A DNA stretch of 35,331 nt from a virus (taxonomy: Duplodnaviria; Heunggongvirae; Uroviricota; Caudoviricetes): the IMG/VR virus record IMGVR_UViG_2703718813_000007, one strand, 5' to 3'. The position numbers and the translations under genes were made by a program. Positions 2,730 through 30,450 of this stretch are shown piece by piece (the stretch's first letter is position 1; each line of letters begins with the position of its first letter). Under the pieces are notes generated by a model. That model searched no databases, was not told where the DNA came from, and worked only from the letters and a program-made list of their open reading frames with translations.

Positions 2730-2870
2730 TTACTGTTTACACTGCAAGAACGCCGCAAATTGTGACCACATGATGTTAAGCCTGAACTCACAGGGTGAGT
2801 TGTGTATCATCCAGACAATCATCAAAATAGTTATGCATAAAATGCTCACTATGATCGTTTTTTGCGGCAT
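2730..2870 (-). CDS. hok: Hok/Gef-family small membrane toxin, copy C (46 aa)
   Basis: Minus-strand ORF ATG at 2870 to TAA at 2730-2732, translating to MPQKTIIVSILCITILMIVWMIHNSPCEFRLNIMWSQFAAFLQCKQ. AAAAGGAG precedes the ATG. Confidence 0.65.
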   Translation of the reverse strand: MPQKTIIVSILCITILMIVWMIHNSPCEFRLNIMWSQFAAFLQCKQ

Positions 2871-3734: not shown

Positions 3735-5408
3735 TTATTCGATTATTGGTGAATATTTATTTTTAAGCTGGCGGCACTCCTGAGCGACCTGGCTGAACTG
3801 TGCGGCCTGCGGAGACGTGCCCGTTTTGGGGTGGGTATGTGATGCCGTAATATCGGCCAGCTCTTCCACCACATCGGCAAGGTCCGTCAGCATGGTCAGT
3901 ACATTAATGCCCTCGTTTCCCAGCTTCACCGTATCGCCAACCAGCTTCTGCGCCAGCGCAATACTGTGACGGACGCCCTTAATCTTTTCGGTAAGGCTGC
4001 CGCCCACGGTGTCCAGTGTGTCGCCTTCCACGTCGCGCTCACAGGTACCGGCAACCACCATCATGTGCCCGCCCGTGCTGATGCTGTAGTTCTCTTCAGT
4101 GATATGGGTGACTGCGCCAGCCTGAAGCGTGGATACGCCCAGGACGGTGGTTGTGTCGGTTGCCTGTATGGTGGTCTCCCGGCTGGTCAGGCTCCGCGTC
4201 TCCTCGTCTGCGCTCACCACGCGCTCGCGTGATGTCTCCTGTATCCGCTGGTCTGTCTGGCGCTCCCAGTCTCCGGCGACCGTCACGCGCTGCGATACGC
4301 CGTCGCGCTGTTGCTGCAACTGCTCGCCCGGCTTCACGTCGGGCAGATTGTGGCCCTCTGCCATTATCTGGCGGATGAAGGGCTTATCCGCCCGGCCTTC
4401 CACAAATCCCACTTCCACCAGGGTTCCGGGTGGCGGGAACTGGAACATGCCGGACTCACTGCCCGCCATGGGTACGGGGAGGGGAACGGCGTTATAAACG
4501 GGCGTATCCGCTGCCGGGTTGCCGTTCTCGTCAAGCAGCTGGAGATTCACCGCGTAGCGGGGTCTGAACGGGTCGGCAATATTGCCCGCGCTGACGGCTT
4601 CGGTCGGCGCCTCAACACGTGCCAGTTTGGGCAGGTGAAGCCCTGATGCCAGTTCAGGGAAGGCCTTTTCAGCCTGGCGACGGAAAGGGGACTTCTGGAG
4701 GGGGGCGCCGGTGGCTTTATTGCGTGGTGTCCACGTGATGGTCATGTTGTCATCTTCCAGCATGACCATCGTCAGGCGCTGACCGTTCACCTCCACACCC
4801 GGTCGCAGCGTCTGAATCATCGGGAGGGTCATACTGTGTCCGCCCGTTGATGCCTGGCTGAACTCGTGCGGGATGGTGACGGGGCGACCGGAAAACATCC
4901 CCTGCGCGGCGGCAGCGGCCATAATGCCGCCGTCCGGTAACGGATGCCAGATGTAGTCCGGTACGGAGAAAATACGCCCCAGACTGGCCAGCAGTTCGTA
5001 GCCCGTGCCGCTGTGCGTGAAATGCGGAACGGGCCTGTCAGTGTAAGCCGCGTTGTCCGGCAGGATGATTTCCAGCCCGCTGGTCTCACTCAGCCACTGT
5101 GTGACCGTGCGCATTGTCGGGTGCTGAAATGAACAGGGGAAGGGGTGATCAAGGATCCCCGCCATTTCACGAATCAGAAGCCGCACCGAGCCGTTTTCAG
5201 CGGGCTGGCTGCGTTCAACGTATCCGGTAAACCAGCGCACCAGGTCGTTTCCGTATCCGATATCGAGACGAACAGGGCGCCCGGTGTAGTTCTGCTCTGT
5301 TCTGGCCGTGATAAATCCGCGTCCGCACGCGTTCAGCTCAAGCATGACGGAACAGCTGACCAGCTGAATGGTGTCGTTACCCAGTAACAGACGTTTAGTG
5401 GGGTTCAT
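3735..5408 (-). CDS. Baseplate hub-spike fusion protein (N-terminal hub region plus C-terminal P2 gpV-like spike with apex motif), 557 aa
   Basis: The segment GTLVEVGFVEGRADKPFI resembles the OB-fold of the P2 gpV family, and the C-terminal ASHTHPKTGTSP resembles the gpV/gp5 apex motif (HTHKHPGDSGGTTGSP in P2 V as I recall it). Last gene of the tail operon. From memory only. Confidence 0.55.
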   Translation of the reverse strand: MNPTKRLLLGNDTIQLVSCSVMLELNACGRGFITARTEQNYTGRPVRLDIGYGNDLVRWFTGYVERSQPAENGSVRLLIREMAGILDHPFPCSFQHPTMRTVTQWLSETSGLEIILPDNAAYTDRPVPHFTHSGTGYELLASLGRIFSVPDYIWHPLPDGGIMAAAAAQGMFSGRPVTIPHEFSQASTGGHSMTLPMIQTLRPGVEVNGQRLTMVMLEDDNMTITWTPRNKATGAPLQKSPFRRQAEKAFPELASGLHLPKLARVEAPTEAVSAGNIADPFRPRYAVNLQLLDENGNPAADTPVYNAVPLPVPMAGSESGMFQFPPPGTLVEVGFVEGRADKPFIRQIMAEGHNLPDVKPGEQLQQQRDGVSQRVTVAGDWERQTDQRIQETSRERVVSADEETRSLTSRETTIQATDTTTVLGVSTLQAGAVTHITEENYSISTGGHMMVVAGTCERDVEGDTLDTVGGSLTEKIKGVRHSIALAQKLVGDTVKLGNEGINVLTMLTDLADVVEELADITASHTHPKTGTSPQAAQFSQVAQECRQLKNKYSPIIE

Positions 5409-6661: not shown

Positions 6662-7258
6662 TCAGCCTGCGTGATGATCCGGCGAAGGGGATTCAGGCCA
6701 GACAATATCCGGCGCGTTGCCCGTGTCTGTCCGGTTCAGTAATACCCGGTATTTTTTCCACAGGGGAAGCAGGGCGCTTTCATCGTCGGTCGCCATATTT
6801 AAATCCACGGCATCCTGGAGGATGTTTATTGTATTTGTTGCTTCCTGTATTAATTCCCGTTTTTTGTTCTCCGCCTCGCTCACCCGGTAAGCCTGTTCTG
6901 CTGCTTCATCCTTAACCCATGATGAACCATCCCACCGGCAGAACTCCCCGTCCGGTTTTATTTCTGTCACGTTTTCCGGTAACGGGCCCGGCTCAGTAAT
7001 CAGTAAGGCGCTCCCCGACTCCAGACGCCAGACGGCTTTACCCCGGTGATCTTCCATGAGGTGCCAGGCGTTTTCATCCTCATCAAAGATAGCCACGTGT
7101 CCTTCAGGAATGTCAGGCGGGGCAATGTCCGTTGAGTGCGCAGGCAGTCCGGTATGCGGAGGGATCCAGGCATCGCCTTCGCCGATAAATTCATTTGTTC
7201 CGGCTGACAGGTTGTAGATTTTAATTGTCTGTGGGTGTTCGCTCATTTTAAAGGTCAT
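6662..7258 (-). CDS. Tail fibre assembly chaperone (lambda Tfa-like), 198 aa
   Basis: The N-terminus [48 protein letters not shown] matches the lambda Tfa family start as I recall it. Its ATG overlaps the tail-fibre stop codon. Confidence 0.85.
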
Positions 7259-9318
7259 TATGCAAGCCTCACGATGTAGTTAAATGCGATGTTTTTGACG
7301 GTGTTTTCCGCATTACCGGTGGGGTTAATGGTCAGGCCGTGGCCATGTTGACCCAGTGCGAGCGTGTGGATGTGTTCGCCAATGCTTACCGAATGTGTGT
7401 GTTCCGAAACTCTGGCGATCAGGTTCGCCCCGGAGCCCGGCCCGTATGCGGTCCAGTCACCGCTGCCTTCCGGTGACGCGGTGGCGGTTCTTAATGATAT
7501 TGTTGCGCTGAACGGCCCCGCGCTGTTTGTTGTTTTTGTGCCGTAATTGAAGGATGAGGTCGTTTTTGTGCCAAGGTCAGTATTTGAGACGCTCCCTCCG
7601 TGGGTGTGCGATTTGATGCCGTCCTGCTCCTGTGACAATACCGCACGACCGCTGGCAGGTTTTCCCTTGATTGTCCAGCCACGCATATCCGGGATACGAC
7701 CATCCGGATAGGCTTTTGCCAGCAGGGGATATCGTGCTTTATCGAATGTCTGCCCCACCATGATGGCGTAACCGGCAGGTGGGGTGTCTGACGGCCACGG
7801 CAGGGGAACGCCTGCGGGTAACAACTCACTTGCAGGCAGTGCGCCGATGTCCTGTGGTGTGGGTTTGTTTTTGTCCGTGTAAGTGCGGTACCAGATGGTG
7901 CTTTTCCCTTTATTTAAAACAACCCCGGTGAACTGTGTGCGGAGGTACATGTCGGCAGGGTTTGGGCTTTCGAGACCTGTCGTGATCCTGATGATCCCCC
8001 CGTTGATGTCGCCTGATACTTCGATAAGGCAGCCTCCAAGGCAGATATCACCATAGCCCGTATCAGTGAGCACGCTGTGCCGGGAAAGTGAAATATTGGC
8101 TTTGAATATCCAGAGTCCTGGTCTGAAGGCGCCACGTTCATTCAGCCATTCCACGAATTGTTCTGTTGTCCAGCGTTGCCCTGCTTCACCCACGTACCCG
8201 TCTTTTGCATAAACGCGTGGTGCGCCCACGTTGATCAGGAACAGCTCCTTGTTGGGGATGTCCTCACCATTGCGGTTTTTCGCAAGCCGACCATCGGCGT
8301 TGTCCATGGCGATCTTTATAGCCTTTGGCGTGGCTGCCTGTGTCTCTGATGTACTGGTGGTGGCGCTGCTTAACTGTGTGAAGCCCTTTTCTTTCAGCGT
8401 TGCGTCCGGGTGGTTGCGTGATTTCTCGTGTTTTTTCAGAGCGTCCAGCCAGCGGCGTTCTTCCGGCGTTCCTCTGGGGCGCAGGTCAGTCACGTTGCCG
8501 TCTTCATCAATGTCAGCAAGGGCAAAAAAATATTGCCGGGCGGCCTCCTTCCTGTGTGCTTCCAGCAGGATCTCTTCCGTGGCGGCGGGGTCGGCCATGA
8601 TAATATCGTGCTCCACCGTCCATTCACTGGTGAGCGTACCGGTCCACCATACTGTCAGCCAGATACGGGACGGGAAGTCTGGCGTGGTCAGCGGTATGTC
8701 TTCGGTCAGCTCTGCGCGTAATCCCTCCACGTAACCGGTCCCTTTGCAGAGTGACCATCTTTCGCCTTTTTTAACCAGCCAGCCGTCCCCAAAGAATGCA
8801 GCGTTACCGTAAATATCGATGTTTTCCCGGCGCTGGCGCTCGTCCATGGCCGCCAGACGTGCCGTGAAGTCTATCTGCCAGGTCTGCGCCGGGGTGGTGA
8901 TACCTGTGGCTTCCTTCGCACCGCTGTACTCCATGAGCATGGAACGGACCAGCACATTACCTTCGTTACCGTTGTGGGTTCTGATTTTTTTCTGTGTGGG
9001 GGCGTGAACAATCATGGCCAGCGTGCTGGTTGCTTTGCTGACCAGTCCCACCCAGTTAAATTCAAAATCACCCAGCTCTGCCCCCAGGGTGACCGAATAA
9101 ACCACGGCATTCTCATTCACCACGCCGGTTTTGCCAACGGCCTGGCGGTGAACAATCTGATCTTCAGGCGGCAGGGTTTCGTCGGGGGATACCGGTGTTT
9201 CCGGGTTGAGGTCCGGGACGTTTGCAAAAACAAACTCATCCAGCACAACGGGGGTGCCTTCCGCCGCCTGCTGTGCCTTGAGCCGGATAAAGGCGCTGGT
9301 AATTACAGATTTCGCCAT
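7258..9318 (-). CDS. Tail fibre protein, 686 aa
   Basis: Contains the tail-fibre shaft motif [33 protein letters not shown] (shared with the P2 H family) and a C-terminal receptor-binding region ending [24 protein letters not shown], as in lambda Stf-type fibres. AAGGAG precedes the ATG at 9318. Confidence 0.85.
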
Positions 9319-11394: not shown

Positions 11395-13577
11395 CCCGCG
11401 TAAAGCTCCGTCCATTCATCCAGTTGCCCCGGCGTCATCGGGTTCTGCGTGTTGATTGTCAGATTGCCGAACGTCCGGCTGTTGTCGATACGGGTTGAGG
11501 TGTCCGTGCGTATCTGGTTGCGTATGCCTCCGGGTGGCAGCTCTGCGCTGATGCGGTTGCCTGCCAGTGCCGGGACGGCGGTTTCTGCAATCTGCGGAGG
11601 TACGGTGCTGCCTGTTGCGCCCCGCGTCATGGTGTTCACCTGCTCCGTGGGCTTCATGTCGATACTGATACCGGGGATTTTGTTCAGCTTTTCCGCAAGC
11701 CAGTTCCACGTCCGGTTAAACGAGTTTTTAATGACGTTCCATAAGTCCCCGAAGACGTTACCGATGATCCCCGCCATTTTCCGGAAGGATTCGACCGGGG
11801 CGGTCGGGTCAAATGCAGCCACCACGTCCTGCCACCCTCTGATGACGATGGCGAAGATGTCGATCAGGGTTCTGATCACGCTGATAACCACCTCCAGCGC
11901 GGGGGATATCATGCTTACCGCTGCGGCCACCACGCGACCGCATGTTTCCCCGGCACGGGTGACGCTGTTCATCTGTCCCGTGGTCAGCTGTACCGGTGCA
12001 AACAGATCGGAGAAGGCACTGAACAGTGTTTTTATGCCCTGCCATACCGGGGCCAGCGCCCGGGCAATGTCACCGAACGCGGCAGTCACCGGGCTCATGG
12101 CGTCCAGTGCGCTGGTAAAACCATCAATAAAGCCGCGAATAAAGGCTTTGATGGGCTGCCAGAACTTAATGGCCACCACCACCAGAGCAGCGATGGCGGC
12201 GGCAACCAGGAGGACCGGGGCGCTCATGGTCAGAAACGACACGCCCGCCAGACGCGCGGCAAGACTGGTGGCAATGATGGCACTGCGTACTTTTGTGAGT
12301 GCAAGCGTGTACAGACTCCAGGCTGCCCTGGCGCCCTTTATGATGGCCTTATGGCCTTCCATGATGAAGCTGAACACACCCAGCACGATGTTCGTGACCG
12401 CACCGGCTGCGCCCAGCGCCAGCATGGTCAGCGTGATGTAACCCAGCCAGCGGGCGATGTTCGGGAACATGTTCAGCCAGCGCACGAACGTCGCGCCGAT
12501 ATCGGCAAAACGGCCAGCCAGTGGTGCGAGAATGGGGTAGAGGGCATTACCGATGGCGGCCCGGATGTTGTAGAAGGAGGCCACAAGGCGATCCCACGGG
12601 TCGGTCATGGCTTCAGCCATTTCCGTGGCACGCTTCATGCCGTCATTACGCCCCAGCGCTGATATGCTCCGGTTAAGCATTTCCTGCTGCCCCCAGAGTT
12701 TTTTAATCACGTCCGCGCCACTGCCGAAGGCGTCATCCAGCGCCTGTTGTGCCGCCACGTTACCCTCAATGTTCCTGCCGAACCTCGCCTGCAGACGGTC
12801 GAGGATGTCACCCATGGGTAAAATCCTCCCGGTGACATCGACAAAACTCATCCCCATTTTTTGTGCGGCAGCGGGGGCACTGCGCAGGAATTCCTCATAG
12901 ATGCCCGATGCCTCGGTGCCCATGGTCCGTGACAGGGTGCCCAGTATGGCAAACTGCTCTGCCATGCTGACGCCAAAATCCGCGCCCGCGTTTTTGGTGC
13001 CCTCAATAAGCTCCTGCATGGTGCTCATTTCCACACCGAACTGCTGAACCATCCACGCGGTTTTACCTGCCAGATCTTCAGCAAACCCCACGGCACCCAT
13101 GGCAGAAAACTCACTGCGGAAACGGGCACCCATGGCGGCAAGGTAGCCGCTCGCCTCTTCGCTGCTGACGCGGGCAGCCACGGCCAGGGTGCTGGTTGCT
13201 GCCGTCACACGGGGTAAATCCCCGTCGCTCAGTCCGTCCAGTGCGCCGCGAATATGCCATGCGGAACGGATGATCTCCGTGGAAGACTGACCGAATGCGG
13301 TCCCCAGTTTCATGGCCTGCGTGGTGAGGGCGGTCAGCGCCTGCGCCCCGACGCCTTTGGCCTCAAGCTCGCCCAGCGCCTTCTGCATCTCCCACGCCGG
13401 ATCCATCGCGGCGCGGATACCTTCGGCCACGCCCCACAGTCCGGCCACACCCACACCGATACGCGCGAACGCGCCCTGCGAGCGTTCGGCGAATCCCGTC
13501 ACGGATTCCTGAACCTGCCGCAGCGGGCGGGTAAGCTGGTCTGTCAGATTGATAATGAAATCCAGCTGGCTGGCCAT
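11391..13577 (-). CDS. Tail tape measure protein, 728 aa
   Basis: Long, Ala/Gly-rich, largely helical protein with hydrophobic central segments, directly downstream of the tail assembly chaperone. GGAAGG lies 5 nt before the ATG at 13577. Confidence 0.85.
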   Translation of the reverse strand: MASQLDFIINLTDQLTRPLRQVQESVTGFAERSQGAFARIGVGVAGLWGVAEGIRAAMDPAWEMQKALGELEAKGVGAQALTALTTQAMKLGTAFGQSSTEIIRSAWHIRGALDGLSDGDLPRVTAATSTLAVAARVSSEEASGYLAAMGARFRSEFSAMGAVGFAEDLAGKTAWMVQQFGVEMSTMQELIEGTKNAGADFGVSMAEQFAILGTLSRTMGTEASGIYEEFLRSAPAAAQKMGMSFVDVTGRILPMGDILDRLQARFGRNIEGNVAAQQALDDAFGSGADVIKKLWGQQEMLNRSISALGRNDGMKRATEMAEAMTDPWDRLVASFYNIRAAIGNALYPILAPLAGRFADIGATFVRWLNMFPNIARWLGYITLTMLALGAAGAVTNIVLGVFSFIMEGHKAIIKGARAAWSLYTLALTKVRSAIIATSLAARLAGVSFLTMSAPVLLVAAAIAALVVVAIKFWQPIKAFIRGFIDGFTSALDAMSPVTAAFGDIARALAPVWQGIKTLFSAFSDLFAPVQLTTGQMNSVTRAGETCGRVVAAAVSMISPALEVVISVIRTLIDIFAIVIRGWQDVVAAFDPTAPVESFRKMAGIIGNVFGDLWNVIKNSFNRTWNWLAEKLNKIPGISIDMKPTEQVNTMTRGATGSTVPPQIAETAVPALAGNRISAELPPGGIRNQIRTDTSTRIDNSRTFGNLTINTQNPMTPGQLDEWTELYAG

Positions 13578-13578
13578 G

Positions 13579-14042
13579 TCACCTTCCGTTAAATGCGATC
13601 GCTATACCTTCAGCGGTCTTGTTGGCGCGGGTACGGGCAAAATATTCATCCAGCCAGATGGCACGGGCGATGCTCTCTTCGTCGTCCGGCTCTCCGGGGA
13701 GGTAGTGACGCCGCAATGCCAGATACTGCTCAAGGGGATTGCGGCGGATGCTTTCGACCCGCGCGGTCAGTTTTTTAACTCAATCTCCAGTTTCGGGGAG
13801 TAAACCTCGTTAATCTTCTCGACGATCTGCATCTCACAGCCCGGATAACGCGCAATCAGGTCAGCCAGTGCGTCGCGGCTGGCAGGTGTCACGATGCGGT
13901 TAAGATAGGTGCTCATCGGCGCCACCTTGTTGGTCATCGTGATTTCGTTGATGAGGTTGTTAAATGCCGTTTTGTTCGGTTCAAAGCTCAGGGTTACGCC
14001 CGCAACGGACAGGATGATGGTGCCGGTGTTCTTCGTGGTCAT
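13579..14042 (-). CDS. Predicted -1 frameshift fusion product of the tail assembly chaperone (P2 E+E' analogue)
   Basis: After a -1 slip at the heptamer (plus-strand coordinates 13770-13776), 63 codons remain open (KKLTARVESIRRNPLEQYLALRRHYLPGEPDDEESIARAIWLDEYFARTRANKTAEGIAIAFNGR) and stop at 13579-13581, 1 nt before the tape-measure ATG. The track shows no ATG-initiated ORF in this 190-nt gap. Confidence 0.5.
13767..14042 (-). CDS. Tail assembly chaperone (P2 gpE-like), 91 aa
   Basis: Small ORF immediately upstream of the tape measure. It ends ...CTG GAG ATT GAG TTA AAA AAC TGA, with the heptamer A_AAA_AAC directly before the stop. Confidence 0.6.
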   Translation of the reverse strand: MTTKNTGTIILSVAGVTLSFEPNKTAFNNLINEITMTNKVAPMSTYLNRIVTPASRDALADLIARYPGCEMQIVEKINEVYSPKLEIELKN

Positions 14043-14332
14043 TGCAGTTTCTCCGTGTTTCGTATGGTTTCCACCAGGCTGTTATGCCTGGCGGCGCATT
14101 CGGTGTAGCGGCTCGTGAGGGTTCGCAGTGCCGCATCAAAATCAGCGCCCGTCGGGCCTGCCAGTCTCGGCAGTGTCTTCGGGCATTCCGTCAGCTGGTT
14201 TTCCTGCCAGGGTACGCTCAGCGGCTTCAGCACGGGCGTTGAACAGCCGGACGTAATCATCAGTAGCGCACACATTGCGGAATACCGGGCGGACGGTTTC
14301 CGTGTGAATAACGCGTTCAGTGTGAATTTCAT
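14039..14332 (-). CDS. o-spanin (Rz1-like outer-membrane lipoprotein); start at 14332 or 14275
   Basis: Small Pro-rich ORF in an alternate frame overlapping the 3' half of the i-spanin gene. It has a lipobox-like ITSGC after a hydrophobic stretch, and its stop overlaps the chaperone ATG. Confidence 0.5.
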   Translation of the reverse strand: MKFTLNALFTRKPSARYSAMCALLMITSGCSTPVLKPLSVPWQENQLTECPKTLPRLAGPTGADFDAALRTLTSRYTECAARHNSLVETIRNTEKLQ

Positions 14333-14528
14333 TGCCCTTTAACGCCTCCAGCCGTTTTTCCAGTATGCGGGCGGACTGCTGCCCGGCTTCTGTCACCGCC
14401 CGTCGCGTGGCTTCCATGGCTTCCTGTTCGGCAAGCGCCACCCTGGCGTCATGCCAGTCATGGGCCAGCCAGCCCGCCCACATGGCGGCAAAGAGGATCA
14501 CCAGGCAGCCCGCCAGCTGTTTCATCAT
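14142..14528 (-). CDS. i-spanin (Rz-like), 128 aa
   Basis: N-terminal transmembrane helix (LAGCLVILFAAMWAGWLA) followed by a charged helical periplasmic domain. Directly downstream of the endolysin with an ATGA overlap. Confidence 0.6.
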   Translation of the reverse strand: MMKQLAGCLVILFAAMWAGWLAHDWHDARVALAEQEAMEATRRAVTEAGQQSARILEKRLEALKGNEIHTERVIHTETVRPVFRNVCATDDYVRLFNARAEAAERTLAGKPADGMPEDTAETGRPDGR

Positions 14529-14863
14529 TTCACCCCGTTGTGCTCAAGGCTGAAATGATTGCCGTCTGCCCGGCTGAAGCGTCCGCCCCATGTGCCGCCG
14601 ATGGATTCCCAGTATTCCCCCAGCGGCCTGTAGGCGTCGGTGTCGGCCTGGTATTTGCCGTTAATGAACAGGTTGAAGTCCACCGCGAGGCGCAGCGTGT
14701 GAAGGCTGTTGCGAATGCCTTTTCCGCTTTTCGCATTCAGTGCGGCCTGCTCCGGCGTGCGGTATGCCTCGCCGAAGGTCAGGCGATAGCCGTGCTCCTG
14801 TGCCCAGTGGATGAGATCGGCAATCATGACGGCAAACAGTTGTTGTTTTTCGCTCAGTTTCAT
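14525..14863 (-). CDS. Endolysin, peptidase M15 family (L-alanyl-D-glutamate peptidase type), 112 aa
   Basis: Metal-binding motifs of M15-type phage endolysins as recalled: H in SLHTLRLAVDF, D in AVD, and H in DGNHFS. GAGGAG precedes the ATG, which overlaps the methyltransferase stop. Confidence 0.75.
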   Translation of the reverse strand: MKLSEKQQLFAVMIADLIHWAQEHGYRLTFGEAYRTPEQAALNAKSGKGIRNSLHTLRLAVDFNLFINGKYQADTDAYRPLGEYWESIGGTWGGRFSRADGNHFSLEHNGVK

Positions 14864-15615
14864 CAGTCACTCCTCTGTTCCGTCCCCGTAAGGCGCGCCT
14901 GTGCCACGCTGAAATAGTGGGCGTTCAGTTCAATACCCGTAAAACGGCAGCCCCGGCGAAGGGCGGCCACGCCCGTGGTGCCGGACCCCATAAACGGATC
15001 GAGGATCAGCCCTCCGGGTTCACACACGCGCACAAGCTCATCCATCAACGATTCCGGTTTACCTGTCGGGTGCTGTTTCTCCTGTGGGCGTGTGTGGTGC
15101 GTGATGCAGCCGTCGAACGGCCCGGAAGGGGATTTGCCCAGCGCGCCTTTACTGCCCCAGACCACATATTCGCACTGGTGACGAAAATAACCGGTATGCG
15201 GTGTTCTTGAGGCCCGTCCCTTGTTCCATGCCACGATCCCCCGCCAGGTAAAACCGGCGGCCTGGAATGCGTCCGTCAGCGCGGGCAACTGCCGCCAGTC
15301 GGTGAAGACCAGGGCGTAACCACCGGGTCGTACCGTGCGCCATGCCTGTGTCATCCACAGATGCGTCCAGTATTCCCATGAACGGGCGTCCATGTTCTCG
15401 CCTTCGAAGCCTTCAAAGCGGTGAAGATCTTCATCGTTGATGTATTTGGCGTGGCTGCCCTGGCATGTCCGCCCCGCCTTGTGTGTGGCACCTGAACTGT
15501 ATGGCGGGTCTGTGATGAGCGCGTCCACACTGTTTTCCGGCAGCATTCGCAGAACGTCATGCGCCTGCGCGTGATACAGGCTCAGGAAAGGCGAAATGTA
15601 AGGCTTATGGGTCAT
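14863..15615 (-). CDS. DNA methyltransferase (N6-adenine or N4-cytosine, beta-class), 250 aa
   Basis: Motif IV DPPY near the N-terminus (ALITDPPYSS) and the AdoMet motif I near the C-terminus (LILDPFMGSGTTGVAA), with HPTGKPESL between them. This circularly permuted order is typical of beta-class amino-methyltransferases. No adjacent restriction gene. Confidence 0.85.
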   Translation of the reverse strand: MTHKPYISPFLSLYHAQAHDVLRMLPENSVDALITDPPYSSGATHKAGRTCQGSHAKYINDEDLHRFEGFEGENMDARSWEYWTHLWMTQAWRTVRPGGYALVFTDWRQLPALTDAFQAAGFTWRGIVAWNKGRASRTPHTGYFRHQCEYVVWGSKGALGKSPSGPFDGCITHHTRPQEKQHPTGKPESLMDELVRVCEPGGLILDPFMGSGTTGVAALRRGCRFTGIELNAHYFSVAQARLTGTEQRSD

Positions 15616-15910
15616 TTCTGCGTTCCTTCTGCTTCAGGTAGCGGTCTGCCAGACGGCAAAAGCATTCTTCAATAAAGGCGCTGCCCATAATGCCCAGCGC
15701 GCACGCCAGACCGACCACAACCAGTTCCGGCATGTCCGGAAATTTAAACAGCGGAATGGCGGCAACCGGTGCCACGGCAGAGCCCATAATCATTCGCCCG
15801 ATAAGCAGACGGGCTGTGATGCGATCGCGGCTCACCATGAGACGCCCCAGCCCGATGGCAGCACCGATGATAATCAGTTTTGCCAGGAGTGAAGTCTGAC
15901 CGTCCGGCAT
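15605..15910 (-). CDS. Holin (class I, three transmembrane helices; P2 gpY-like), 101 aa
   Basis: Three hydrophobic segments and a charged C-terminus (RLADRYLKQKERRNDP). The segment ITARLLIGRMIMG resembles the P2 Y holin family. AAGGGG precedes the ATG at 15910. Confidence 0.65.
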   Translation of the reverse strand: MPDGQTSLLAKLIIIGAAIGLGRLMVSRDRITARLLIGRMIMGSAVAPVAAIPLFKFPDMPELVVVGLACALGIMGSAFIEECFCRLADRYLKQKERRNDP

Positions 15911-15914
15911 GGCA

Positions 15915-16376
15915 TCACCCCTTCAGATCGCGGGTGTCACGGGCTGACAGGTAGGGCACGCCGTCAATGCTGATAAAGTCCGGGCTTGTGACCATGAACT
16001 TGATTTTTTTCGTGGTCTTTCCGGCTTCAGCTGCGCTGATGTTCACCACGTCCGACAACATGGGGACGCAGCCGAACACCTCGATTTTTTCCTCCTCGCT
16101 GCCGTTGTTGGCATAAAAGAGAAAATCCTTTTCAGGAATGGCACGCCACGACCCCGCAGAGCGGGCCACAGCACCAAACTTTTTAAAGTTCTGCGCGTCG
16201 ACTTCCACCTCCACATCGGCAGAAACAGAACCACGGGTGTAGCCGTTCGGCACGCCGCGCGTCTGTGCCACGGCGCTGTTGTCGGTGATGGTGACGGTGG
16301 CGCTTTCCACGTGGATCATGATCCCGTCGTAGTTGATATCAAACGCGCCGCCGCTGATACGTTCATTTCCGGCCAT
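15915..16376 (-). CDS. Tail tube protein (putative), about 153 aa
   Basis: The ATG at 16376 lies 1 nt after the sheath stop codon (TGAcATG), preceded by GGAG. Size and position after the sheath gene are the main evidence. Confidence 0.5.
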   Translation of the reverse strand: MAGNERISGGAFDINYDGIMIHVESATVTITDNSAVAQTRGVPNGYTRGSVSADVEVEVDAQNFKKFGAVARSAGSWRAIPEKDFLFYANNGSEEEKIEVFGCVPMLSDVVNISAAEAGKTTKKIKFMVTSPDFISIDGVPYLSARDTRDLKG

Positions 16377-16377
16377 G

Positions 16378-17523
16378 TCAGATCTCCAGTGCTGTGTCGA
16401 GTTCAATACTTACGCCAATGGCTTTTGCGCTCTCGTAGGGGCGTACCACAATGTAAATCTGCACGTGTGTACTGCTGGTCCAGACGATGGTGATATCCCC
16501 GTCCTGTGGCGGTTTAACCTCGCCGGGGAACGGTACGCCGTTAATCTCCGTGGCGAGCGCCATTTCACGCAGCGTGCGGCTGAAATATGTCTGGCTGGCG
16601 GCAATGCTGCCCGGTGTGCTGTTGAGTGCGCGATCCGCAAGGCGGGCAATGGCGCGCAGACGTACACGGCGGGAGACTTTATCCACCACGCGCACGTTTT
16701 CGATGACCTGGTAATCTCCCCCCTCCACATCAAGGGTGCGTCCGTCTGACCAGTAGAGCCCGTCGAAATCGTGATACCACATGGGCACGCTGAAGCGTTT
16801 GCCTTCCAGCGAGCGCAGCGTGGCCAGCTCAAGGGGCTGTTTCTTGCCGTCCTGCGGGATCTCATCGTTACCCATCGCCACCAGGGCACCGGTTGCCACA
16901 CGTGCCGGACTGTCCGCAACGGTGACGGAAGGATTACAGAGACGGCCCGCCAGTACGCCGGGCTCATTACCCCATAAGCGGGGAACCACCATCACGCCAG
17001 GTGCTGCCACGCCGTCCTGTATGGCACTGATGCGGGTGACGTATGCCGCCCATGCCTCATCCTTGCCCGGTCCGGCCACGCACAGCATGAACCAGACAAA
17101 ACGGCCATAAGCGGACTGAAGCAGGGCGCGGGTTTCGGTGGCGCGGTTAACGGCATCTTTGGCCGTGATGTCAATGGCAATCACCACGCCCTCGGCAGAA
17201 GCAATGGTCTGCGCTTTTTTCACCGCGTCCACCCATGCGGCGTTAGCGTCGCCGCCCTCCGGTGCCGGGGGTTTGGGTTCAGACAGAACGTGAACATAGG
17301 CAAACCAGTTCTGGCCACCGTTGGCGATTGCGGCGGTAAGCGTGGATTTAAGCAGGCTTTCATCCGGTCCCAGCACGTCGTCCAGGTCGGTCTCAGGGGA
17401 GACGGAAAGGGTGTTACCTGTGTTCTTTTTGCCATAGCCCACAAAAAGCAGCGTGCGCTCCACTTCACGGGTGGCACCGTTGAAACGGTTCTGATGGCTT
17501 ACGGTTACATTCGGCCAGCTCAC
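16378..17523 (-). CDS. Tail sheath protein (putative), 381 aa; GTG start
   Basis: Largest gene between the tail-completion genes and the tube-sized gene; GTG start at 17523 with AAGGAG 7 nt upstream. Assignment is by position and size, with weak resemblance to P2 FI. Confidence 0.5.
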   Translation of the reverse strand: MSWPNVTVSHQNRFNGATREVERTLLFVGYGKKNTGNTLSVSPETDLDDVLGPDESLLKSTLTAAIANGGQNWFAYVHVLSEPKPPAPEGGDANAAWVDAVKKAQTIASAEGVVIAIDITAKDAVNRATETRALLQSAYGRFVWFMLCVAGPGKDEAWAAYVTRISAIQDGVAAPGVMVVPRLWGNEPGVLAGRLCNPSVTVADSPARVATGALVAMGNDEIPQDGKKQPLELATLRSLEGKRFSVPMWYHDFDGLYWSDGRTLDVEGGDYQVIENVRVVDKVSRRVRLRAIARLADRALNSTPGSIAASQTYFSRTLREMALATEINGVPFPGEVKPPQDGDITIVWTSSTHVQIYIVVRPYESAKAIGVSIELDTALEI

Positions 17524-17534
17524 GGTGTGACTCC

Positions 17535-18245
17535 TTATCTGATATCCTGTGCGTCAACGTCCAGGCCGTAGCCCATTGCGTTCATCTGGCGTGCCAGGAT
17601 GTGTGAAAATTCTTCGTTTGTTACCCCCAGAAAGACGCGCGACGGAAGGGTAATGGTCCATGTCCGGGCCTTCTGCTGACGTGGTCCGGCGATAATCTGA
17701 TCTTCCATAACGGTGATCAGCAACCCGGCCTGCGCCCGCGAAAGCGTTAACAGGTATTTCATGGATGCTTTCCGCCAGCGCCCCTTCTGACGTACCTTAA
17801 AGCCCAGCTCCCGCAGTCGTTTTGCCTGTCGGCGGGTGGCGGTCTGTCCGCTCTGGTCCTGACCGCTGAAGCTGTCAGCACTGACCCGGATTTCTGCGCC
17901 GTTGTGGTGAACCCAGCCCACGGCACCGGCACTGATGCGGCTCCTGCCACTGGTGTGATTGCCGTTACGGAAATAAACCTTTACGGCATCCTGTCCGGGC
18001 ATCTCACGGACCGCCAGAAGACGCGGCAGCTTTCTGAACATTTTCCCCTTACCGCGTTTCCTGGGTGCCCATGCTGTACCGTCCGGTGCGGCCTGATCGC
18101 GCTGATGGCGTCTGGCAGCGGCGATAATGCCGTGCCGGGCAATACGCCATAACAGGCGACGGCGTTTTTTTGGTGGCAGATCCAGCGACTGAAGCATCGC
18201 CTGCGCTTCTGCCAGCTGCTGCGGGTTCAGCTGGCCGCTTATCAT
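17535..18245 (-). CDS. Virion morphogenesis / tail completion protein (P2 gpS-like, Mu G-like), 236 aa
   Basis: The N-terminal region (LPPKKRRRLLWRIARHGIIAAARRHQRDQAAPDGTAWAPRKRGKGKMFRK) resembles the Phage_tail_S family. It carries a C-terminal extension relative to P2 S. Confidence 0.6.
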   Translation of the reverse strand: MISGQLNPQQLAEAQAMLQSLDLPPKKRRRLLWRIARHGIIAAARRHQRDQAAPDGTAWAPRKRGKGKMFRKLPRLLAVREMPGQDAVKVYFRNGNHTSGRSRISAGAVGWVHHNGAEIRVSADSFSGQDQSGQTATRRQAKRLRELGFKVRQKGRWRKASMKYLLTLSRAQAGLLITVMEDQIIAGPRQQKARTWTITLPSRVFLGVTNEEFSHILARQMNAMGYGLDVDAQDIR

Positions 18246-18715
18246 TCGCGGCTCCTGCTGACAAACAGATCCATGGTTTCCGCCGTCCAGATTTCAGGGT
18301 TAACCAGTGTCCAGCGTTTCCCCCTGTACGGAACGGGGCCGTCTTCCTGCACCCGGATGATCAGCGGGTCAGCCAGTCCCACCGTGATATCGAGAAGGCA
18401 CGAGTCCTCATCGTTAAACTGCGGGTCGACGTTCACATCCTCCGGGCGGAATTCCTCCCTCAGCGGATCCGCGTGCTCTTCCAGCCAGGCCATGACCAGC
18501 GCGTAAACCAGCCCCGGTGAGTATTTGCGGAACGGGAAGTTATCCCATGCAATCACGCCGGTGTACGTCATCACGCCCATGCGGATCTGGTCGTTACCCA
18601 GCGCCTTCTGACTGCGGATAAGCTGCGCGTCTTCCTGACTGCTCATGAAGAACTGCATGGCGTCAGGCGGCAGATTTTCGGTAATGAAGGCGGTCAGGCT
18701 TTCCAGCTGGTTCAT
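18242..18715 (-). CDS. Tail completion protein (P2 gpR-like), 157 aa
   Basis: Position directly after the head completion gene and before the S-like gene; the segment LVYALVMAWLEEHADPL resembles P2 R. ATGA overlaps on both sides. Confidence 0.55.
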   Translation of the reverse strand: MNQLESLTAFITENLPPDAMQFFMSSQEDAQLIRSQKALGNDQIRMGVMTYTGVIAWDNFPFRKYSPGLVYALVMAWLEEHADPLREEFRPEDVNVDPQFNDEDSCLLDITVGLADPLIIRVQEDGPVPYRGKRWTLVNPEIWTAETMDLFVSRSRE

Positions 18716-19185
18716 ATGATGTGCACTCCCGCGCGTCTGTGCCCCAGCATGTTACGCATGACCAGCGAGGCTTCAGCCAGTAAGGTGGCGCGTGTGTCCT
18801 CGCTTTCCTGCCCCGGATAGGTTTCACGGCGACCAATGGTGGCGAACTCGCCCATAAGATCGGCCTTGGCACGGGCATAAACGGCCTTTTTGTACTGTGC
18901 GACCAGCTGGGTTTCATCGCCCAGCCTGGCCCCTGGTACGTCTGCGGCGCGTTCATGCCCCTGCGCCTTCCAGTGCGCCACAACCGGCGCCAGCGTGGTG
19001 TTCACCTCGGCCACTGCGGCAAGCAGCGCCATGGCCGCCGTGTCGTCGGGTAAATCAGCCGGAAGCGTGCGTGACCCCTGAAGCTCAGCCAGATCAAGGT
19101 CCGGCCAGAACGGCTCGCCGTTTGTCACCGTCTGCGGTGTGGATTTCAGCGGTTTACCGCTGACGCTGAAGCTCGGTTCGCTCAT
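18712..19185 (-). CDS. L: Head completion/stabilisation protein (P2 gpL-like), about 157 aa
   Basis: The motifs GEPFWPDLDL and YKKAVYARAKADLMGEF align with P2 gpL (FWPDIDP, YRRAVY..A.L.E.Y). The internal ATG at 19185 (GAGG upstream) aligns with the P2 L start; the track ORF begins at 19236. Confidence 0.8.
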   Translation of the reverse strand: MSEPSFSVSGKPLKSTPQTVTNGEPFWPDLDLAELQGSRTLPADLPDDTAAMALLAAVAEVNTTLAPVVAHWKAQGHERAADVPGARLGDETQLVAQYKKAVYARAKADLMGEFATIGRRETYPGQESEDTRATLLAEASLVMRNMLGHRRAGVHII

Positions 19186-19292
19186 GACGTGCCTCATATG
19201 AATAAAAAGGCGGGCTGTCCGGGATTCCACGGCCATACAGTTTCCGTCACTGATGCCTCCTCCCGCGCCCGCCCGGCCCTGCGGGTAGTCGT

Positions 19293-19991
19293 TTACGCTG
19301 CATTAAGGGCGCTGATGCGTGCCCTGATGCGCGCCCTGATACTTTTTACGCCAGCGGTACGGCTCAGTGCTGCCGCCTGTGCCAGGTATGCGTCTGCCTT
19401 TTCCAGTACGGCAGTATCATTAATCGCGGTGGCTCTCGGTTTGCCTGCCTCGTCGCGCAGAAGATACAGCCCGGCAAATCTGAACCACTTCGCGCGGATT
19501 TCCTCATGCAGCCGCCACGTGGTGGTGACGTTCCTGAAGGTGCGCGAAAAATACGGCTCTATGCTGTGTCCGGCCTCGCTGTTGTCGGTGGCCCACTGCA
19601 ACACCGTGTCGGCCACGAAGGCGGGCAGGGTGCTGCGGAAGTTGTCCGGCGTGGCCTGGCCTTCACTGATGGCAATGTCTGCCCAGTCAAGGGCGCGACT
19701 CAGGTCGCCCGTGTCGAACAGCCAGATGATGCAGTACACCAGTACCGGGCAGGCGTGGCGCTTTCCGTCAGCGATATAGCGCTCCGCGACGGGCAGCCAG
19801 CGCGGCAGGAGAATGTCGCGCTTGAACGCCAGCCGCTCTTCGCGGACAGGAAGACTGCGCAGCCGTGCCACATCGCGATCAAGCTCCGCGCGTAACAGGT
19901 GGAAGCTGACCGGGGAGGCCGTCAGCGCTTCCCGGCGTTCGAGTGCCTCCTGTGTGCGGATTTTCGCCCGGTGTCGCTGGCAGGGTGTCAT
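19293..19991 (-). CDS. M: Terminase small (endonuclease) subunit, P2 gpM-like, 232 aa
   Basis: The N-terminus MTPCQRHRAKIRT and the segments ILLPRWLP and IIWLFDTGDLSRALDWADIA resemble P2 gpM. Confidence 0.85.
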   Translation of the reverse strand: MTPCQRHRAKIRTQEALERREALTASPVSFHLLRAELDRDVARLRSLPVREERLAFKRDILLPRWLPVAERYIADGKRHACPVLVYCIIWLFDTGDLSRALDWADIAISEGQATPDNFRSTLPAFVADTVLQWATDNSEAGHSIEPYFSRTFRNVTTTWRLHEEIRAKWFRFAGLYLLRDEAGKPRATAINDTAVLEKADAYLAQAAALSRTAGVKSIRARIRARISALNAA

Positions 19992-20008
19992 TGCGCCGCC
20001 CTCTGTGC

Positions 20009-21037
20009 TTATGCGCCGCCAGGTGCGGGCTCTTCTGCCGCTTCTGCGCCCTTGATGGTCAGCTTGTCGTAGGCCGCGTAAATTTCGTCGTGCTCCACGG
20101 CGTAACCTTCCATGCGCAGATAGTTGTTTTCAAAACGCTTGCGATCGTCGTTCCACTCCGCACGGCGCTGACGGGTGCCGCGCTGCGTGTAGATGTGAAG
20201 GTTTGCCAGCGTGGTGACAATCAAGCGTCCTTCCGGCATGAACGGCGGGGTGTATGCTGTCAGCCCGGCGATCTGGCGACCGATAAGCTGCGCGGCCACT
20301 TTTTCCGTGGGGGCGTCGATGGCGTTAAGCAGCGTCACCTTGTCCTGTGCCACAAGATCGGGCGCAACCAGTACCACCAGATCCGGATGACCGCGATACG
20401 ACTCATCAATGAGGGTGTGCACGAGGTCTGCCACGGCTGCATCCAGCCCGATAAAGTCGCCACCCTTGCCCAGCGTCGGGCCAGCCTCCACGATCTGTTT
20501 TGCGCTGCGGCCTTTGACGATGGCATGCCAGCCGGTGTTGACGTCCTCGCCGTTTTTGTTGGTTACCGGGTCGGTATCTTCGGCCACGCTGGTACCGTTA
20601 AAGGCAATGCGCAGGATATCCAGCGCGATCTGTCTGTTAACAAAATTCTGAATGCGGTTAAAGAACTCGTTTTCACCGCCTGCGTTTGCCCAGGTGACCA
20701 GTGTGGTGTACAGGAGGTGGGCACCGGAATCGGTTTCAGCCAGCTTGTATTCATTCCCGGTAACACCCAGCGGAAGGGTGAAGCGGGCATTTTTTTTACG
20801 TCCGGTATGGAGGCCCGGAACGCCGGTGGTAACCACCTGGCCTGTCACCTGTTCAACATCCAGCACGTTCGGCAGTTTTGATAAAAACTCGTCGGAGTGC
20901 ATGATGGCGTCACGCAGCGCGGTCTCCTTCGGGTCAGACAGCGCAAAATAGCGTGTGACGTCGTCAACTCCGTTTGCCGCACCCAGCCCGGCAGCGTACT
21001 TACGAAGCAGTGATTCGGTTTTCTGGTTCAGTTGCAT
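20009..21037 (-). CDS. N: Major capsid protein, P2 gpN-like, 342 aa
   Basis: The motifs GKGGDFIGLDAAVADLVHTLIDESYRGHPDLVVLVAPDLVA and NLHIYTQRGTRQRR..ENNY..EGYAVEHD align with P2 gpN. AAGGA precedes the ATG. Confidence 0.9.
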   Translation of the reverse strand: MQLNQKTESLLRKYAAGLGAANGVDDVTRYFALSDPKETALRDAIMHSDEFLSKLPNVLDVEQVTGQVVTTGVPGLHTGRKKNARFTLPLGVTGNEYKLAETDSGAHLLYTTLVTWANAGGENEFFNRIQNFVNRQIALDILRIAFNGTSVAEDTDPVTNKNGEDVNTGWHAIVKGRSAKQIVEAGPTLGKGGDFIGLDAAVADLVHTLIDESYRGHPDLVVLVAPDLVAQDKVTLLNAIDAPTEKVAAQLIGRQIAGLTAYTPPFMPEGRLIVTTLANLHIYTQRGTRQRRAEWNDDRKRFENNYLRMEGYAVEHDEIYAAYDKLTIKGAEAAEEPAPGGA

Positions 21038-25119: not shown

Positions 25120-25156
25120 AATGTCCTCCCCGGGATACGTGTTATCGGGAGGTAAG

Positions 25157-25420
25157 ATGCGGATTTTTAAAGCCCGGTGTCCGGACTGTGGCGCACCTGC
25201 TGTCATCCGGAAGACAGACTGGAAAACCCCTGAACTTGCGGATCTGTACTGTGCATGCAGTGATGTCGAATGCGGGCATACCTTCGTCTGTACGATGACC
25301 TTTTCCCATACCCTCAGCCCCGGCGCCCGCTCCGGTCGCAATATGGTGAAGTTCCTGGTGGATGCCATGCGCCCGGAAGATCGCCGGTATGCGCTTGAAC
25401 TACTGTCGCGGCGTTCCTGA
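25157..25420 (+). CDS. ogr: Ogr/Delta-family zinc-finger late-gene activator, about 87 aa
   Basis: Cys pattern CPDCG ... YCACSDVECGHTF matches the Ogr/Delta C-x2-C ... C-x4-C-x2-TF signature. The ATG at 25157 is preceded by GGGAGG. Confidence 0.75.
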   Translation: MRIFKARCPDCGAPAVIRKTDWKTPELADLYCACSDVECGHTFVCTMTFSHTLSPGARSGRNMVKFLVDAMRPEDRRYALELLSRRS

Positions 25421-30128: not shown

Positions 30129-30450
30129 GGTGTGGCCTCTTTGCTAGTAAGTTCTGAAAACTCACCAACCTGAGGCGGTAATCTCAGGGTGGCGAGACGT
30201 ACGGGGTTACCACAACCGGCTAGCAAAGAATCCGGCCCGACCGAAGTCGGCCCCGTACGCCCCGCCATAATTCGTGTGCGAAAAAGACGTGGCGATACAG
30301 TACGCACAAAAAAACCGCTGGCGCGGCTGTGCGCTTTGCTAGTCGGCGGGGTGGTAATCCCGGCACCCGTTTTATGAGGTGCAGCGGGAATGTAACCTGA
30401 CTGATTGCGGCATGGCAAGCGGTTTTTTTGTGTGTGCATGTTCTGGTTTC

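Follow-up and report, generated by a model that had tools for sequence, protein, structure and literature searches.

How does a DNA methyltransferase (MTase) gene come to lie between the holin and endolysin genes of a prophage, and what could an enzyme made from that position do? The question is raised by IMG/VR record IMGVR_UViG_2703718813_000007, a stretch of 35,331 nucleotides (nt) of Caudoviricetes DNA that we analyzed at its full length and refer to here as the window. The window holds nearly all of an intact E. coli prophage of the P2 family (HP1/Irrigatiovirus type) that sits beside serS, and the MTase gene occupies positions 14863..15615 of its minus strand. We consider it likely that this gene encodes a functional, S-adenosylmethionine (SAM)-dependent beta-class DNA MTase without a partner nuclease, a late-expressed orphan N6-adenine (N6A) enzyme that would mark progeny DNA, with its operon position in place of the regulator Com. 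The family is known, as is the fact that such enzymes occur as orphans in P2-like phages and are frequently controlled by Com, and RefSeq already annotates the gene; our analysis adds the exact boundaries of the insertion, the loss of Com, and the repeated use of the holin-endolysin slot in unrelated lysis cassettes. The placement itself is an uncommon but recurrent variation on an ordinary prophage MTase.

A beta-class methyltransferase within the lysis cassette

The MTase open reading frame (ORF) begins with ATG and encodes 250 amino acids (aa), and in a 99.9%-identical E. coli record RefSeq labels the same coordinates 'DNA-methyltransferase' (WP_062857805.1). Motif IV, DPPY, is found at residues 36–39 (D36-P37-P38-Y39) within TDPPYSS, or more fully ALITDPPYSSG, and motif I, DPFMGSGTT, spans D206–T214 (FMGSG at residues 208–212) in the stretch LILDPFMGSGTTGV. 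Because motif IV is N-terminal to motif I, the protein has the beta-class permutation, in which motif IV precedes FxGxG with the recognition region between them; about 45 residues separate the catalytic and SAM-binding halves. An earlier note on this DNA, made from the sequence alone, had proposed a beta-class amino-methyltransferase from these two motifs in permuted order and had suggested a search against PF01555 as a check. That profile (N6_N4_Mtase) matches at E = 1.2e-27 with 97.8 bits against a gathering cutoff of 26.7, and motifs, profile and fold all agree with the proposal. The phrog_67 family 'DNA methyltransferase' (E = 7e-70) and the PADLOC Type II MTase model MTase_II (E = 7e-62) also match. 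No NCBIfam equivalog cutoff was reached: the CcrM equivalog NF050803 scores 85.9 bits (cutoff 830), the YhdJ-type model 60 bits (cutoff 292), and the plasmid leading-region subfamily PRK13699 (NF010253), still the best NCBIfam match, 105 bits (cutoff 244). In an alignment of 60 family members at about 50% identity, 43 columns are invariant, DPPY and D-P-F-x-G-S among them.

An AlphaFold2 model built with 60 homologs has a predicted local distance difference test score of 89.6 and a predicted template modeling (TM) score of 0.89, with low confidence confined to residues ~41–80, the loop that follows DPPY. When this model was compared with the PDB using Foldseek, the top matches were all beta-class amino-methyltransferases with TM-scores of 0.65–0.75: bdelloid N4CMT, CcrM, M.BceJIV, TTHA0409, M1.HpyAVI, M.MboIIA, M.PvuII and M.RsrI. 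Entries 6pbd, 8urk and 8s9m (CcrM, M.BceJIV and N4CMT among them) matched at E = 1e-16 with TM-scores of 0.73–0.75, which places the fold in the beta class, and a sequence search of the PDB agrees, matching CcrM, M.BceJIV and M1.HpyAVI. On sequence and model together it is near-certain that the gene product is a methyltransferase. The solved beta-class N6A enzymes CcrM, M.BceJIV and M1.HpyAVI resemble it in fold, in DPPY and FxGxG, and in the size of the catalytic module, but they share only 23–26% identity with it and are chromosomal regulators or components of restriction-modification systems with known sites. CcrM, at 366 aa, is also longer than the 250-aa MTase; the alignment ends at CcrM residue ~260, and the CcrM C-terminal domain is absent. 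With at most 26% identity to any characterized enzyme, the recognition sequence cannot be inferred from homology.

The earlier note had also stated that no restriction endonuclease gene is adjacent, and the wider survey bears this out. The MTase is flanked by lysis genes, the near-identical RefSeq record lists no restriction enzyme, and the sole nuclease annotated in the prophage is the replication endonuclease GPA. Nine accessory ORFs of the prophage gave no match to PADLOC defense models. The cognate endonuclease that would mark a Type II restriction-modification system was thus found neither beside the MTase nor elsewhere in the element, and within the reach of the libraries searched the gene is an orphan by sequence. 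The 2-kb lysis region recurs at 98.6–99.9% identity in 12–13 of 5426 complete E. coli genomes, and a megablast search of the phage collection returned no near-identical deposited phage at the DNA level. The MTase ORF is intact in every E. coli copy compared, and the cluster that has its exact protein sequence as representative comprises 280 members.

On the minus strand the genes run in the order tail tube, holin, MTase, M15 endolysin, Rz-like gene with an overlapping Rz1/LysC-like gene, tail chaperone and tape measure. The tube gene (15915..16406; PF10772, HP1 Orf24, E = 1.7e-51) ends 4 nt before the holin gene (15605..15910; 101 aa; PF04550, E = 1.2e-19; phrog_175, E = 6e-31), and its position directly upstream of the holin assigns the lysis genes and the MTase to the tail/late transcription unit. 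Downstream of the MTase are the M15-family endolysin (14525..14863; 112 aa; PF13539, E = 3.4e-10, and endolysin PHROGs), the Rz-like i-spanin (14142..14528; 128 aa; phrog_1152, E = 5.5e-31) and the Rz1/LysC-like o-spanin (14039..14332; 97 aa; phrog_2425, E = 8e-22, with weak matches to PF23793 and NF038368 LysC), which overlaps Rz in another frame and contains a lipobox-like SGCS.

The claim that the MTase sits with the holin and endolysin also stands: it lies inside the lysis cassette, between the two genes and on their strand, with stop and start codons overlapping on both sides. The holin stop codon (15605–15607) and the MTase ATG (15615–15613) make an 11-nt overlap, and AAGGAA is found 7–8 nt upstream of that ATG. 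At the other end the MTase TGA and the endolysin ATG share one base (TGATG at 14865–14861, with AGGAG upstream), and the endolysin and Rz genes overlap by ATGA. The MTase start is inside the holin gene, with no room for a promoter of its own. An internal promoter or terminator isolating the MTase was considered and rejected: across 13400–20200 the coding strand has no terminator-like site and a single promoter-like match, within chance expectation. A compositional sign of recent foreign origin was rejected as well, the GC content of the MTase region (~0.60) being equal to that of its flanks.

The inserted segment and the relatives of the enzyme

Relatives without the MTase were found by searching with holin and tube-holin DNA. 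They comprise three Salmonella phages of the genus Irrigatiovirus (Peduoviridae), namely SI7, SW3 and SW5, together with a group of 18 or more E. coli prophages, of which that in strain 2011C-4251 (locus L122) is an example. Phages of the SI7 and 2011C-4251 type have the same run of sheath, tube, holin, M15 endolysin, Rz, chaperone, DUF6890 and tape measure genes as the window, but they lack the MTase, their holin gene overlaps the endolysin gene directly by 14 nt, and the C-terminal tail of their holin differs. When the window is aligned with L122 and SI7 by blastn, collinear matches at ~71–72% nucleotide identity cover 17579..15669 and 14863..13616, with nothing between, which delimits a replaced segment of 805 bp (14864..15668, minus strand) where the relatives have 56 bp. 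Its right edge is the endolysin ATG and its left edge lies in the holin gene at approximately codon 81, so that the segment supplies a 21-codon holin C-terminal tail (15605–15668), the MTase ribosome-binding site, the MTase, and the endolysin ribosome-binding site. Amino-acid identity to the SI7 and L122 proteins is 83–84% for the tube and 85–86% for the endolysin; for the holin it is 68%, with the divergence confined to the C-terminal tail.

The new holin tail is charged, reading EECFCRLADRYLKQKERRNDP against EAGLKRCLDMYIKRWGSKRNETE in the relatives. Holin C-terminal tails usually tune the timing of lysis, and the insertion may therefore have altered the lysis clock. Since the left junction falls inside the holin coding sequence, the segment may stem from recombination with an unseen holin-MTase phage.

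A more distant HP1-type prophage, L107 of E. coli E7-1N7, is also without the MTase; it was rejected as a representative of the empty site for being too divergent (holin 31%, tube 47%) and lacking Rz/Rz1, and SI7 and L122 were used instead. At 4900–5750 of L107 a 112-bp holin-endolysin gap contains a 35-aa ORF, and hairpin-like sequence stands in place of Rz/Rz1 between the endolysin and the tail chaperone. The endolysin gene of the window (14525–14863) shows a peculiarity of its own. Compared with E. coli OkiPb01677, O22:H8 154 and JNEC-KY172 it shows 18–19 nt of difference (synonymous divergence ~0.19), against at most 5 nt for the holin, MTase and Rz genes in the same three strains; it is also the best-conserved gene relative to SI7 and L122 (85–86% of residues, against 59–70% for holin, Rz and chaperone) and is 74% identical to that of L107. 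It looks like a local recombination patch or a mosaic module beside the MTase.

The closest homologs of the MTase, at 61–73% identity, are all parts of Com-MTase modules. In Escherichia phage Chuche (CDS0013/0014; 73%) a homolog of Mu Com (PF10122; RCKNCNKLL…IEIKCPRCK) overlaps the MTase start near the integrase gene. An abundant E. coli cluster (P0002; 70–72%) is found in P2-type prophages at their right end, following gpD, Ogr and Hok/Gef, a Yersinia cluster (P0006; 63–67%) lies in an HP1-type prophage after HP1_ORF34 … Hok/Gef-Com, and a Salmonella cluster (P0009; 61–65%) lies behind Com, as does the MTase of Stenotrophomonas phage Smp131 (gp05/gp04; 50%). In the Burkholderia P2-like phage KS5 a 'Com translational regulator', gp21, is likewise followed by an N-4/N-6 methylase, gp20 (PMC3091744). 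These Com-linked P2-family enzymes share with the window enzyme their clade, size (~245–266 aa), phage family, orphan state and, presumably, confinement to the lytic cycle. They differ in occupying moron slots (at the prophage end, on the portal side, or between tail-fiber and sheath genes) directly behind Com (PF10122), while the window MTase is fused into the holin-endolysin junction, has a different N-terminus and lacks Com. In a neighbor-joining tree, built without support values, the window enzyme nests among the Com-linked enzymes.

A search of the window with four Com proteins using tblastn gave nothing credible. No Com remnant or second MTase copy was found in the window, including the end with Hok/Gef ORFs by serS, the one match at E = 0.001 being antisense in serS and taken as spurious. 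A regulatory hairpin resembling a Com target at the MTase start was also rejected, as the folding z-score relative to shuffled sequences is 0.47 and an Rfam search of 13000–17000 matched no family. The locus departs from the Com-MTase (mom-type) module, in which the PF10122 gene lies immediately upstream and overlaps the MTase start: the holin is upstream, Com is absent, and there is no structured RNA at the start. In the plasmid collection, at least 5000 entries, for the most part conjugative and enterobacterial plasmids, code for a protein whose alignment covers at least 80% of the MTase at less than 60% identity; these are presumably leading-region MTases of the PRK13699 type. A 34-kb E. 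coli 'plasmid' record, NZ_CP148288.1, contains a Chuche-type Com-MTase pair at 73% identity.

The wider family was surveyed at approximately 100 loci with homologs of 35–73% identity, drawn from species-representative genomes and IMG/VR, by a bulk Pfam scan of the immediate neighbors, and it behaves as a roving accessory gene. Upstream neighbors include an invertase/resolvase (15 of 84 distinct ORFs), a Mu portal (4 of 84), Cro-like and other helix-turn-helix proteins, RusA and Ogr/Delta; the downstream side is occupied by a tail sheath (10 of 74), Mu F (4 of 74), terminase (3 of 74), primase (3 of 74) and others. Bpm of phage BPP-1 is an early gene that follows cro. Holins, from three different families, are the upstream neighbor in 4 of the 84.

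A counterpart in the same slot is a 250-aa, 60%-identical Salmonella enzyme (P0011, L108–L112), for which the contig index has at least 106 blocks, the contigs read being Salmonella. It belongs to a Mu-like prophage with GemA, Mor/C family and DUF1804 genes, and the order there is P21-S-type holin (PF04971), MTase, phage lysozyme (PF00959) and Rz/LysC, with 4-nt overlaps on both sides of the MTase. Slot, length and sequence thus resemble those of the window, but the backbone is different, and a PF04971 holin and PF00959 lysozyme take the place of the PF04550 holin and M15 peptidase. A further arrangement (L083 and L085; 47% identical) consists of a PF05105 holin, the MTase, a lipoprotein-like ORF, an ATP-grasp enzyme and a GH25 muramidase. 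At L083 (IMG/VR contig 3300029527_000140, 5413–9446) the lipoprotein-like ORF has 157 aa and the ATP-grasp enzyme, which is glutathionylspermidine-synthase-like, 424 aa; an oppositely oriented integrase gene lies just upstream of the holin. The lysis genes of the three settings are mutually non-homologous, and the P0011 and L083 enzymes branch apart from the window enzyme in the neighbor-joining tree without support values, which together suggest that MTases arrived in the holin-endolysin slot two or three times independently. A search of the literature library available found no paper on a DNA MTase between a holin and an endolysin. For an accessory gene next to a holin, the closest precedent is abiF of C. 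difficile prophages (bioRxiv 10.1101/2025.04.15.648962).

Proposed expression and role

We propose that a replacement of ~805 bp between holin codon ~81 and the endolysin ATG would have brought the MTase into the lysis cassette and created the overlapping stop and start codons on both sides of it. Transcription would then occur only with the Ogr-dependent tail-lysis late operon, translation would probably be carried out in part by ribosomes terminating on the holin gene, and the enzyme would appear only late in the lytic cycle. Adenines of replicated phage DNA would be methylated before or during packaging, the progeny DNA would resist restriction in the next host, and the chromosome of the lysogen would stay unmethylated, with operon position replacing the Com switch of the nearest relatives. 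We infer co-translation with the holin and late expression from the gene overlaps, the lack of terminator- and promoter-like signals on the coding strand, and the presence in the prophage of an Ogr/Delta-type zinc-finger late-gene activator (25148..25411, plus strand; PF04606, E = 1.3e-15, and RefSeq annotation), which presumably controls the late operon to which the MTase belongs. From these sequence features, expression confined to the late phase appears likely, and the odds lean, less strongly, toward an anti-restriction role. Phage-borne orphan methyltransferases are a main route of temperate phages past restriction and must be off in lysogens. Other prophage enzymes behave in a comparable way: M.EcoGI and M.EcoGII are silent in lysogens and harmful when expressed constitutively (PMC5778455), and Com-linked hin1523 is thought to be repressed until the lytic cycle (PMC3299994). 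The locus offers a clean natural comparison, in which sister phages lack the gene, the closest homologs are switched by Com, and the gene is here wired into the holin-endolysin junction; it makes testable the idea that operon position and translational coupling can substitute for a dedicated regulator.

Several results pull the other way. Translational coupling of the MTase to the holin was deduced solely from the overlaps, and near the MTase start the RNA is no more structured than shuffled sequences. A search for late promoters through dyads of the form TGT-N12-ACA located none above chance, with 6 such dyads in the window against 7.5 expected. The clade placement among Com-linked enzymes comes from the tree without support values, and if an unseen donor already had the holin-MTase arrangement, the event may have been a cassette exchange rather than a de novo insertion. 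Relative to the window, the E. coli copies carry 2–6 synonymous and 0–6 non-synonymous substitutions, and the ratio of non-synonymous to synonymous rates (pN/pS) of 0.2–0.3 in four divergent copies, resting on 2–6 substitutions per class, is weak alone; the 43 columns invariant across the family weigh more as a sequence sign of constraint. With regard to the target base, the best Foldseek match is an N4-cytosine (N4C) enzyme, that of the bdelloid (8s9m, E = 3e-17, TM-score 0.74).

One of the dyads deserves separate mention. TGT-N12-ACA is the Ogr-box pattern of P2 late promoters, and a perfect example lies within the holin gene at 15733–15750, with the MTase ATG ~120 nt downstream of it. Coincidence is the probable explanation, given the chance-level frequency of such dyads and a spacing to a -10-like CATTAT that is too great by ~6 nt.

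Because the top structural match is an N4C enzyme, the fold does not decide the base, and PF01555 covers both activities; for the KS5 and KL3 homologs, too, both options were left open (PMC3091744). If the MTase were an N4C enzyme, its context and role would be unchanged. However, D36 of DPPY is invariant in the family, and in HMMER alignments M1.HpyAVI and CcrM have DPPY at the position of D36–Y39 where the N4C enzyme has SPPY. The sequence matches in the PDB are stronger to N6A enzymes (CcrM 4.5e-22, M.BceJIV 3.5e-21, HpyAVI 1e-20) than to N4C enzymes (4.6e-14 and 4.7e-06) by 6–15 orders of magnitude, and the best NCBIfam matches are adenine-specific models. The invariant DPPY and the stronger N6A scores favor N6-methyladenine (m6A); we regard N6-adenine specificity as quite probable from the sequence, and N4-cytosine specificity as unlikely. 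A further reading is that the enzyme controls host or prophage genes epigenetically in the lysogen instead of serving as a late anti-restriction function. Host genes are regulated by orphan methyltransferases like Dam and CcrM, and CcrM is the best PDB sequence match. Accessory genes adjacent to holins can be expressed from prophages, as in the case of abiF. This possibility is very remote, since the MTase start lies inside the holin gene without room for a promoter, upstream promoter-like sites are not above chance, and the structural and lysis genes that surround it have to stay off in a lysogen because holin expression would kill the cell; prophage MTases of the M.EcoGI/II type are silent there as well. 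Remoter still is a non-functional passenger, a decaying moron without current activity. The element is rare and its sister phages do without the gene, but the catalytic and SAM-binding motifs are all intact in a confident, well-folded model, no examined copy of the ORF is broken, pN/pS is below 1, the protein cluster is large, and the start/stop overlaps and ribosome-binding sites are preserved.

An alternative that bears on specificity rather than on timing is that the enzyme is a promiscuous adenine MTase with little or no sequence specificity, hence toxic and kept under strict late control by Com or by the lysis cassette. Its closest relatives are found behind Com, the regulator of toxic Mom and of Hia5 and Hin1523, which, like Nma1821, are promiscuous, Com-linked adenine MTases found in place of mom in Mu-like prophages (PMC3299994). 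As orphan phage enzymes under Com, these three are functionally analogous to the closest relatives of the window enzyme, but they have the other circular permutation and belong to another family. Membership in the Hia5/Hin1523 family had been considered because of a 'gpCom' beside the best phage homolog; it was rejected, as those enzymes are alpha-class and Dam-like, with a catalytic Asp at 191–194 (PMC3299994), and the window protein has motif IV first. M.EcoGII, from a prophage of E. coli O104:H4, is a closer analogy in its permutation: a non-specific beta-class adenine MTase, lysogen-silent and harmful when constitutive (PMC5778455), it has beta-class order, DPPY and FxGxG, and a prophage-borne orphan state in common with the window enzyme. 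It has 349 aa, with a ~100-residue linker and a target recognition domain (TRD) formed by a four-helix bundle at residues ~160–237 (PMC11551740), a domain that is absent from the window enzyme. Compared with its published sequence by BLASTP, the MTase gave two short high-scoring segments at 27–39% identity (E = 2e-8), leaving M.EcoGII residues ~81–280 unaligned, and membership was rejected since the similarity is at motif level only, without a TRD counterpart. The short spacing of ~45 residues between the two halves, and the best NCBIfam match to a small plasmid subfamily, would fit promiscuity. Against it, M.EcoGII is unrelated beyond the core motifs and Hia5 is of a different permutation class, beta-class enzymes or domains that are just as small (M1.HpyAVI, M.BceJIV, the CcrM N-terminal domain) recognize defined sites of 4–6 bp, and family members occur in early operons, as in BPP-1, and at many other locations, which speaks against toxicity as a general property. 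A literature search found no experimental specificity for Bpm or for the KS5 and KL3 homologs. We consider promiscuity doubtful.

Its broadest form is more doubtful still, namely that the 250-aa clade is a minimal, nearly sequence-independent adenine MTase whose toxicity has repeatedly forced strict late control, through the Com switch in most P2-type phages and through holin-endolysin fusion in at least three unrelated lysis cassettes. If true, promiscuous m6A writers would have a third, smaller architecture in addition to those of alpha-class Hia5 and of beta-class M.EcoGII with its TRD, and the holin-endolysin junction would be a selected slot for last-minute expression and not a neutral insertion site. 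The finding would be notable only if the enzyme were such a compact writer. For the window enzyme itself we retain the late-expressed orphan N6A MTase as the preferred explanation.

Other features of the prophage

The remaining gene content is that of a P2-family phage with HP1-type parts: integrase, Cox, the GPA replication protein, Ogr/Delta, portal, terminase, P2-type capsid and GPL are accompanied by an HP1-type sheath (DUF2586), tube (HP1 Orf24) and HP1_ORF34. Between serS and the tail end of the prophage lie three tandem ORFs of 46 aa encoding Hok/Gef-family toxins (1532–1672, 2007–2147 and 2730–2870, minus strand), with SLCEIR or SPCEFR motifs. In the Yersinia and E. coli relatives Hok/Gef occurs at the same prophage end and is followed by the Com-MTase pair, which is missing here.

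In the early region, Rfam matches at gathering level identify a C4 antisense RNA (RF01695, 82.6 bits; 30185–30272, minus strand) and beside it the Hfq-binding small RNA isrK (RF01394, 62 bits; 30308–30382, minus strand), and RefSeq annotates 'derepression protein' ORFs near them. The pairing of C4 with isrK suggests, from sequence, an RNA-based immunity/anti-repressor module of the P1/P4/Gifsy type in a P2-family prophage. At the other end of the window, the tail-fiber gene (7258–9318) is an intact ORF of 686 aa; its counterpart in E. coli strain Bongo, whose prophage is 99.9% identical elsewhere, is broken into two pseudogene fragments.

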